Origin: Candidatus Hydrothermales bacterium
GTDB taxonomy: Bacteria > Hydrothermota > Hydrothermia > Hydrothermales > JAJRUZ01
Direction: 5' to 3'
Length of the DNA: 64,000 bases
NCBI GenBank assembly: GCA_039630575.1
Contig: JBCNUW010000004.1
Coordinates: 1-64,000, forward strand
A model generated the notes under the pieces. It had not been told where the DNA came from. It saw only the letters and a list, made by a program, of their open reading frames with translations, and made no database searches. Each line of letters opens with the position of its first letter. Position 1 is the first letter of the stretch. Positions 1-21,623 of the stretch are shown here, in pieces. The translations under genes were made by a program, and so were the position numbers.

Positions 1-1805
1 CACTTGAAAACCAAACAGAAAAAATCGATAAATACCTCCTCACCATAACAATAGAAGAAATCACCGACTTTTTAAACCATCACAAAATAAACTACAACAA
101 AAAAGACATCCATAACATCATATCAAAAACAAAAGGCCACGGACTCTTCACAAGAATACTCCTCTCAGAATACCTAAATAAAAAAACTGTCCCAGAAAAA
201 TTAGAATCTGAATACATAGAAAAAATACTAAAAGAAAAACTCAATGAACTTGAACCAGTAAAAAGAAGTTTGCTCCTCGGATTATCATGCCTCGAAAGAT
301 TTAAAAAAGATGAACTCGAAAAAATATTAGGCCTAAAAAACCCAGAAAATTTCATCAAAGAAATAACAGAAAAATTCCTATTCATAGAAAAATCCGGCGA
401 ATACTACTTCCTAAACCCAATATTCAAAGAATTCCTACTAAAAGAACTAGAAAAAAACCCAAAAGGTCTCATACTTAAAAAATGGATCCTCGATAACGCC
501 GTAGAATACTACCTAGAAAAAGAAGACTTCTTCCAAGCTCTCTCATACCTACTAAAACTTAAATACTACTCAAAAATACTTGATGTACTGAATAAAAAGA
601 TATACGATATACTCGATACCACCATCTTTTATGAAATAGAACCTATAGTTGAGAAACTACCTGAGGAACTACAAAAAAATTTTCTTATAATTCTAATTAA
701 AGCAGAAATTCACTATTTATCCTATAGATTTGAAGAAACCCTAAAAGAACTTGAAAAAATTGACGTCAGTAAGCTTGAGCCTGAGTATCGAGGACTTTTT
801 TTCTTTTTAAAAGGTGGATCTTTTTATTATCTAAGTAACTACAAGGAAGCCGAAAAATTTGCCTATGAAGGACTTCTTTATAAAGATAAATTAGAAAACA
901 GAATCTTATATAGACTTAATACCCTTTTAGGTGCGGTCAGTTCAGCAAATGAAGAACTTGAAAAGGCTGAAAAGTTTTATAATGAAGCACTTAATATAGC
1001 AAAAAATATAAGAATAACAAAAAGGGGGGTTGCTTTACTTCTAACTAATATTGGTGTTGTGTATTTTAAAAGACTCAAATTAGAAATTGCAGAGGAAAAA
1101 TATAAGGAAGCCTTAAGTATAGCTGTTGATGAAGACTTAATTACCTATATTCTTGGAATGCTCTCTTGGTCATATCTTTATACAGGAGATAAAGAAAAAT
1201 TACTTACAACTTTAGAAGAAATGAAAACCTATATTGAAAAATCGAGAACTTATTACTATTACGACAATTATTATTTTTTGCTTAAAAATTACTATATACT
1301 CATAGGAGATATAGAAAAGGCAAAGGACTGTAATTCTAAGTTAAGAGAACTTTACGAAGAATACAAAGATCCTGATACACTACTTGATGTAATGCTCTTT
1401 GATTCTTCGTATGAACTTATAAAGGGAAACGTACAAAAGGCATTAAATATAGCAAAATCTATTCAGCCACACAGTGAGATATTCGAATGTGATAAAAATA
1501 TTTTACTTGCAAAAATTTTTCTTGTTTTGGGCGAAGTAGAAAAAACTGAAGAATATTTTAGAAAAAGTCTTGAAAAATGTCATAAAAGTCCTCTTAGAGA
1601 AATTTCTTATTATATACAATATTTCTTATTTCTCTTTTACATGAAAGATTTAGAAAGAGCAAGTGAAGAAATAAAAAAAGTAGTAAAAAAATTTTCAGAT
1701 CTTAATCATTTCTTTTACAATTTAAGATATGAAATCAACATTTTTCCACTACCGATTAAAGAAGAAGAAATAATAAATTTTCTCAAGGAACAAAAGATTA
1801 TCTAA
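1..1805 (+). CDS. MalT-like STAND NTPase C-terminal part (helical/winged-helix + TPR array), 5'-partial, no C-terminal LuxR HTH
   Basis: The frame is open from nt 3 (LENQTEKIDKYLL...IISKTKGHGLFTRILL...), so the TTG at 270 is internal. The 'TKGHGL' segment and 'YYFLNPIFKEFL' resemble STAND HD1/WH motifs. TPR-like repeats follow (LGAVSSANEELEKAEKFYNEAL; NIGVVYFKRLKLEIAEEKYKEAL). Confidence 0.65.
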   Translation, partial: LENQTEKIDKYLLTITIEEITDFLNHHKINYNKKDIHNIISKTKGHGLFTRILLSEYLNKKTVPEKLESEYIEKILKEKLNELEPVKRSLLLGLSCLERFKKDELEKILGLKNPENFIKEITEKFLFIEKSGEYYFLNPIFKEFLLKELEKNPKGLILKKWILDNAVEYYLEKEDFFQALSYLLKLKYYSKILDVLNKKIYDILDTTIFYEIEPIVEKLPEELQKNFLIILIKAEIHYLSYRFEETLKELEKIDVSKLEPEYRGLFFFLKGGSFYYLSNYKEAEKFAYEGLLYKDKLENRILYRLNTLLGAVSSANEELEKAEKFYNEALNIAKNIRITKRGVALLLTNIGVVYFKRLKLEIAEEKYKEALSIAVDEDLITYILGMLSWSYLYTGDKEKLLTTLEEMKTYIEKSRTYYYYDNYYFLLKNYYILIGDIEKAKDCNSKLRELYEEYKDPDTLLDVMLFDSSYELIKGNVQKALNIAKSIQPHSEIFECDKNILLAKIFLVLGEVEKTEEYFRKSLEKCHKSPLREISYYIQYFLFLFYMKDLERASEEIKKVVKKFSDLNHFFYNLRYEINIFPLPIKEEEIINFLKEQKII

Positions 1806-21607: not shown

Positions 21608-21623
21608 TTTAAATTTTTAAAAG

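Follow-up and report, generated by a model that had tools for sequence, protein, structure and literature searches.

The window analysed here, a stretch of 64,000 nucleotides that starts at base 1 of contig C34 in its own 1.89 Mb genome assembly (G000), opens with a tract (nt 1-582, + strand; mean GC skew -0.32, TA skew -0.39) whose coding strand is extremely rich in A and C at silent positions. We propose that this is probably a tract of the GRINS type (Nivina 2021, PMC8256042): the halves of two paralogous genes that carry it evolve in concert, silent sites have shifted in one direction, and the minus strand would have been single-stranded and damaged in the course of recombination.

A bounded A/C skew inside a STAND/TPR gene

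The tract occupies codons ~143-335 of a 5'-truncated, MalT-like STAND/TPR gene (nt 3-1805, + strand), which we read as the downstream (B) copy of a tandem pair and which encodes ~742 aa in relatives. Looking to the left of the window, as the initial annotation had recommended, finds the end of the contig: C34 begins inside the gene and the first 142 aa are absent. Contig C24 enters the gene after comEC and breaks off at aa 106, so the G000 assembly broke inside the N-terminal half; a contig-end overlap search of G000 found no neighbour for the start of C34. The P-loop, GEPGLLKS, looks degenerate against the motif consensus, a point of difference from PH0952. The gene matches the TPR_MalT domain and, weakly, AAA_22, and the best solved-structure match to the family alignment, in the TPR part, is PH0952 (PDB 6MFV, E 2e-7), a MalT-like STAND protein with a TPR sensor that the window gene resembles in this respect.

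Recounting the first 89 codons of the ORF gives 50 ending in A, 28 in C, 11 in T and none in G, exactly the hand counts of the initial annotation. At nt 1-500 the A+C fraction is 0.696, the highest among 18,430 500-nt windows of G000 (mean 0.499, sd 0.042); the genome-wide scan of A+C versus G+T that had been proposed along with those counts places the tract at the extreme of this genome. When amino-acid content is controlled for (C versus T in Y-boxes and A versus G in R-boxes, relative to genome codon use), the ORF comes first among the 1,231 that are 190 codons or longer, with z 12.8 against 9.3 for the runner-up. Third-position C/(C+T) is 0.73 in the 5' part (63 C, 23 T) versus 0.23 in the remainder (46 C, 151 T; Fisher p 4e-15), which bears out the preference for T-ending codons reported earlier for the rest of the gene, and G versus A at third positions also differs between the two parts (p 2e-4). 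Four-fold sites in the tract read A30 C21 T9 G0, and the first positions of Leu codons have likewise moved (TTR 5, CTN 29).

The skew profile stays level and then ends fairly sharply; it does not fade gradually. The best change-point falls at nt 579 for A/C endings (support 555-582) and at nt 627 for C versus T (558-630). The bias had been described as persisting to about nt 620-680 and then relaxing with the frame intact; the intact frame and the loss of bias stand, but the end lies slightly further left, at 555-630, and is sharp. On its other side the tract extends past the contig end, the upstream part of the gene on C24 being also C-rich from codon 46 (16 C, 13 T). The tract is not unique, and similar skew of either sign occurs elsewhere in G000: in a 100-site window, a G/T patch at C78:68.5-70.0 kb reaches z 9.6 (the tract, 9.5), and further patches lie at C21:11.9-15.0 kb (G/T, 8.8) and C18:5.7-8 kb (A/C, 8.3).

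Concerted N-terminal halves and directional silent change

Sixteen of the 41 genomes searched match the gene, and four relatives carry close orthologs at the same locus; relatives that have it are named as WOR-3 bacteria, and the sequencing runs holding it are hot-spring metagenomes. At this locus G001, G004 and G005 carry one copy and G002 two in tandem, with 78% and 68% protein identity to the window gene. A single-protein scan of genome contigs gave no relatives among 185 pattern hits, a family-alignment scan of genome contigs one among 115 (the G005 locus, its sole addition), and a metagenome scan three among 477 (L029, L030 and L031), none with a second copy in the DNA recovered; for L029, whose DNA starts 42 nt ahead of the gene, the upstream side lies outside this count. 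In G000, blastn and tblastn found no second copy, and the A copy of the window species was not among the 10 matches of a protein search.

Contigs from two public runs, X1 and X2, bear on this second copy. In X1, record 1 joins the C-half of a paralog, which has 82 differences over 370 nt, to window nt 1-583 at the spacing seen in G002; it ends at 583, and records 2 and 3 both begin at 554, so that the assembly graph branches here into the continuation of the window and a paralog-type one. The X2 contig covers nt 1-610 and then runs into a paralog-type continuation with 6 differences, and the loose end behind nt 610 in the public contigs reads like the A copy of G002. Over the differences listed, to which the comparison is limited, the X1 and X2 contigs (one study, depth ~5-12) depart from window nt 1-553 once, at nt 259 (+ strand; T in the window, A in the contigs of both runs); uncovered stretches of runs X2 and X3 were not counted as evidence. 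The simplest reading, strongly suggested by these contigs, is that two copies with near-identical N-terminal halves exist in this population, and G000 itself could be a single A/B hybrid or a collapsed form. As the second copy is absent from the G000 assembly, the duplication here rests on the contigs of one study together with G002. At a further loose end in X1, behind nt 1772, the upstream copy closes with the same 30 letters as the G002 A copy, despite about one third of silent sites differing between the species.

Within G002 the two copies exceed 80% identity over aligned nt 1-1140 only; identity is 0.57-0.80 beyond, and below 0.80 after codon 350. Silent divergence between them is 0.19-0.24 in the N-half versus 0.38 in the C-half. 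The N-half tree, possibly affected by composition (the B copy of G000 was flagged), joins the two G002 paralogs (98/95), whereas the C-half tree groups the B copies of G000 and G002 (100/100), orthologs together. At the level of sequence, these comparisons show the N-terminal (STAND/winged-helix) halves evolving in concert while the TPR halves diverge. Shared homology and skew end together at nt 554-630 (+ strand), a boundary marked by the public-contig branch, the change-point and the drop in identity between the G002 copies; the change-point interval coincides with the branch at 554-610. To its right, the copy-specific TPR sensor half (nt 631-1805, + strand) has ordinary codon use and is not homogenised between copies. 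The pair would retain one signalling half in common while its two TPR sensors diverge.

Silent changes were polarised against the G001+G004 consensus at 118 sites in the N-half and 164 in the C-half. The window N-half has T>C 24, G>A 5, C>T 2, A>G 1, T>A 10 and A>T 2, and silent transitions toward A/C versus G/T number 29:3 in the N-half and 17:20 in the C-half. On the + strand, T>C and G>A are thus in excess, as the initial annotation had predicted. On the G000 branch after the split, third positions record 14 T>C and no C>T; 7 A>C changes on this branch are not deamination products. As reconstructed from these alignments, a directional silent shift on the + strand (T>C, G>A and T>A) is shown to be confined to the shared half.

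The skew returns in the N-half of each G002 copy and is missing from the C-half between them: C/(C+T) is 0.46 and 0.38 in the N-halves versus 0.26 and 0.21 in the C-halves (p 0.002 and 0.006). No N-half skew was found in single-copy G001, G004 and G005 (p 0.76, 0.47 and 0.37), nor in single-copy L029 and L031; C/(C+T) is 0.50 in the first 100 codons of single-copy L030, and the TPR part of single-copy G001 and G004 includes a mild A/C patch (z 4.9). The association of skew with duplication amounts to one contrast, since the sample includes a single duplication event. The start of the gene is G/T-rich in G002 and also in single-copy G005, and no polarity switch inside the gene is therefore established.

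Silent divergence in the tract is not raised (0.29 versus a genome median of 0.34, with sites near saturation), which lends no support to the earlier suggestion that the tract is hypermutated; nor do skewed genes in general show a rise in silent divergence (rho -0.06, p 0.15, 578 genes, near saturation). A foreign mosaic allele had also been offered as an alternative. The skewed half has 82% protein identity to both G002 copies and falls, on an unremarkable branch, within their clade, so such an allele is not supported.

Polar skew at tRNA genes and contig breaks

A skew of constant polarity also marks tRNA genes and the sites at which G000 contigs break. Of the 30 G000 contigs that reach 15 kb, 26 are richer in A/C in their first 5 kb than in their last 5 kb (p 6e-5); the folded value at contig ends is 0.026, versus -0.001 (sd 0.003) at interior cuts, and the effect reaches ~15 kb. 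The same flip occurs in contiguous G002 DNA at 12 of 13 sites matching G000 breaks, some of them near tRNAs, and is therefore not an assembly effect. Around tRNA clusters, the right flank is more A/C-rich than the left at 29 of 32 in G000 and at 20 of 20 in the part of G002 examined, which differs from ordinary junctions (p < 0.001) and is seen in any replichore, tRNA strand and gene direction. Even in an A/C background, the left flank is negative at 7 of 8 clusters in G002 and 10 of 15 in G000. Elsewhere in the family the counts are 21/27 in G003, 23/28 in G004, 17/22 in G005 and 17/25 in G001 (not significant), and in other families 9/25 in G006 and 8/21 in G012, the test taking the 30 best of 43-47 loci per genome with duplicates and unscorable loci dropped, and kin not being independent. 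G004 and G005 show the tRNA-flank flip though their single-copy N-halves are unskewed.

Effects of position within genes or operons were rejected as the cause of the flip (convergent -0.010, co-oriented 0.000, divergent 0.012 versus 0.044 at tRNAs). Indel sites between G000 and G002 agree with the polarity in 6 of 10 cases; a count of 14/14 at 'other' synteny breaks includes adjacent and mis-paired sites, which are not independent. In the 700 nt flanks of tRNAs, third positions favour G/T to the left and A/C to the right, for example at the window tRNAs at 21623, 29456, 31980 and 51774. The G/T|A/C polarity forms a sawtooth over the replichore skew up to 15 kb from the contig-breaking sites of G000, and the same polarity is visible downstream of the 23S rRNA end (C17:300-4000). 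A G/T patch near comM in G002 proved to be an N gap.

For bidirectional resection in yeast and tumours, the portion of PMC6334234 used here describes a top strand that is single-stranded left of the break and a bottom strand that is single-stranded to its right. The mutation clusters at such resected breaks give G/T to the left and A/C to the right, as is seen at the tRNAs and variable loci here; those clusters are single eukaryotic events produced via APOBEC or mutagens (PMC6334234), whereas we observe accumulated bacterial composition, known from sequence alone. This geometry is found at tRNA clusters and contig breaks and is not established inside the gene. The same geometry would be expected of daughter-strand gaps left behind a polymerase block, or of the 5' arm of transforming DNA. 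The literature searched (without the term GRINS) did not describe a polar keto skew beside bacterial tRNA genes.

Likeness to GRINS, origin of the skew and other loci

In the portion of PMC8256042 used here, GRINS are defined as duplicated regions of >500 bp with >80% identity to another region of the same genome; their cause is given as unknown, and the authors propose that skew came first and then promoted conversion. In G002 the run above 80% spans aligned nt 1-1140, and in G000 the partner is unassembled. The skews of the window tract (0.32 and 0.39) exceed the GRINS cut-off by a wide margin and those of the G002 copies are borderline (0.15-0.16 and 0.28-0.29), an absolute cut-off that is weak in G000, where 551 of 2,094 coding stretches pass it; both signed mean skews are below -0.15 in 3 of the 2,094, and 1 is as extreme as the window. 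GC and TA skews correlate with r 0.69 along the window ORF and 0.39 within the tract, as described for GRINS, r being weak or negative inside the G002 copies, and the abrupt edge is located by a change-point within ~75 nt. The skew is carried by silent sites with the protein preserved, the frame being open and protein identity to the G002 copies 82%, and the N-half and C-half trees conflict as expected of gene conversion. By these measures the G002 pair passes the GRINS definition, narrowly on GC skew, and we infer the window's partner.

The likeness to GRINS as described in that portion extends to a duplicated coding stretch of ~1 kb, paralogs >80% identical that cluster by genome, same-signed GC and TA skews with an abrupt edge, third positions most strongly affected and an intact protein. 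The case differs in its host, a low-GC thermophilic WOR-3 bacterium of a phylum outside the five surveyed there, in involving a two-copy STAND/TPR pair rather than PKS, and in its uniform C+A polarity. It also offers an ancestral unskewed single-copy state, a MutS/MutL lineage in which NucS was not detected, and, at single-copy tRNA flanks, a polar skew that matches but is weaker, which that portion of PMC8256042 does not describe for GRINS.

We consider it most likely that the minus strand has been repeatedly single-stranded and damaged during recombination, a step that we infer from the composition. Repeated ectopic recombination between the copies would expose the minus strand as a single strand within the homology, as a resected 3' tail, a daughter-strand gap or a displaced nascent leading strand; since the fork passes leftwards at this locus, all three candidates are the minus strand. 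In single-stranded DNA, C turns to U, A turns to hypoxanthine and bases are lost. Such heat-driven changes on the minus strand, or unrepaired wobble errors, would become fixed, further conversion would spread them, and selection would maintain the protein. The skew would then be a by-product of recombination and not its cause, and the same process may, at lower strength, produce the family's G/T|A/C flip around tRNA genes and variable loci. Among the options listed in the initial annotation, recombination or gene conversion in a paralogous STAND pair is supported, as is the T>C/G>A excess.

The repair genes UDG, EndoV and MutS are each present in five of five genomes, and loss of any of them was rejected as the cause of differences between lineages. 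AAG was found in none of the five genomes searched and NucS in none of the six family genomes searched, and on that count GRINS-type skew here appears independent of NucS. Absence of mutL from G000 was rejected as a real loss: a whole syntenic block with several core genes (G002 C12:7.6-24 kb) is missing, an assembly gap.

The main rival, which we judge unlikely, is strand-biased heteroduplex repair, in which G:T and A:C mismatches are resolved to G/T on one strand (C/A on the other) and existing variants are sorted with no extra damage. Such repair accounts for the confinement to homology and the unraised silent divergence, and fits the HsdS blocks described below, but it requires an unknown strand signal and hardly yields T>A 10:2. 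At the tRNA flanks, which are single-copy yet show a signed flip, it would need inter-strain recombination anchored there, and NucS, a candidate for such a bias, was not found in the six family genomes searched. Replication has also to be considered. The dnaA gene lies 75 kb to the right of the window start (~75 kb of C34), where the replichore skew switches, as in three relatives, and G002 has a single skew sign across the locus; the + strand here is therefore the lagging strand. Neither an origin or terminus nor a transfer start just beyond the left edge of the window, as the initial annotation had ventured, is supported: the left side is occupied by the upstream paralog, comEC, ychF and rpsF-ssb-rplI, and both the switch and dnaA lie at 75 kb. 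If stalled forks and an exposed lagging-strand template had merely amplified the replichore skew, the duplication being incidental, the sign of the tract would be that of its replichore, as it is; insofar as contig background can show, the sign also agrees at the HsdS locus and at the other patches of greatest strength. Replichore GC skew, traced to single-strand cytosine deamination in the portion of PMC6263442 used here, has the same sign locally, but the tract is about tenfold stronger (Y-box C excess 0.57 versus contig means up to 0.07) and is bounded by paralog homology. This account is improbable given the sharp stop at the end of homology, the return of skew in each G002 N-half and not in the intervening C-half, the unskewed N-halves of G001 and G004 at the same locus and in the same orientation, tRNA flips that also oppose the replichore, and a search near the tract that found no G4 motif and no strong hairpin (best -3 to -6 kcal/mol).

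We give a small probability to skew having come first, either promoting conversion as a low-complexity stretch, as Nivina et al. propose, or being selected for strand invasion, as proposed for Borrelia vls. Skew may have preceded duplication on the G000+G002 branch, both copies being skewed in both species, but six single-copy orthologs have little or no skew in the N-half, and the 14 T>C changes arose on the G000 branch with the duplicate already present. Nor are there clustered G-runs or a G4 motif of the vls type, the minus strand having just four scattered GGG runs and no G4 pattern in nt 1-700. In the portion of PMC11499132 used here, vls likewise has a strong strand skew limited to the gene-conversion region, and its non-varying homolog vlsH is without it. 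The vls locus is G-rich and of high GC, with G-runs and many silent cassettes, and is read as selected (PMC11499132), whereas here the coding strand is C/A-rich, there are two intact genes, and it is the conserved half that is converted and the variable half that is left alone. An artefact or ordinary cause, whether a chimeric contig end, a foreign allele or translational selection for C-ending codons, is largely refuted and has only a slight chance of being correct. The tract does lie at a metagenome contig end, where the assembler may have jumped from one copy to the other at the node they share, but nt 1-553 recur in two public runs with one listed difference and G002 has the same pattern in contiguous DNA, which also answers the earlier concern about mis-assembly; ribosomal-protein genes are low in C3 (0.07-0.27), and loss of G3 is not a mark of translational selection.

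Recombination between copies, with damage to the exposed minus strand, is thus our preferred reading. Skew as a product of conversion is favoured by this small two-copy case, whose single-copy relatives are unskewed, whose homology boundary is sharp and whose spectrum is polarised; the unskewed ancestors and the T>C changes still accumulating on the G000 branch add evidence on the order of events, and the link between a GRINS-type tract and a polar signature at single-copy sites did not appear in the literature searched without the term GRINS. As a tentative and rather doubtful generalisation, GRINS skews might be the saturated form of a general recombination footprint, in which each strand becomes single-stranded and decays toward G/T 5' of a hot site; this family would record the footprint genome-wide, as flips at tRNA genes, rRNA and variable loci, and at full strength in paralog-shared tracts. 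If true, this would explain GRINS of both signs on one strand, and recombination hot spots could be mapped from composition alone.

A second case in G000 of skew in shared blocks, and not in variable domains, is provided by HsdS variants: G occupies 33 of 55 R-endings in blocks that are 95-100% identical versus 153 of 534 in the variable domains (p 6e-6). The variable domains are imported DNA, which weakens this control. Five HsdS fragments lie on small contigs (C39, C40, C44, C49 and C68), with HsdM at C21:15371 and HsdR at C7:516, family names that we presume from sequence likeness; the five variants, with different target-recognition domains, likely reflect shuffling or strain variation.

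Further skewed loci were noted in both genomes. At a contig end in G000, two secreted-looking genes (C78:68788-70073) have extreme G/T endings (z ~-9 to -11) and are possibly another GRINS with an unassembled partner. Gradients run through housekeeping genes at C21:11100-14750, peaking beside a restriction-modification island, and at C1:122700-124000, peaking beside a pilin locus, the latter kept in G002 (C1:115 kb). Two heavy-metal ATPase-like genes by IS remnants (C18:5849-10035) are A/C-rich throughout and may be imported, and the short contigs C72 and C88, of unusual composition and proteins, may be foreign to the genome. In G002, a dispersed repeat pair that is 85-86% identical (C12:3356-4849 and C1:286649-288346) has an A/C patch at each member.
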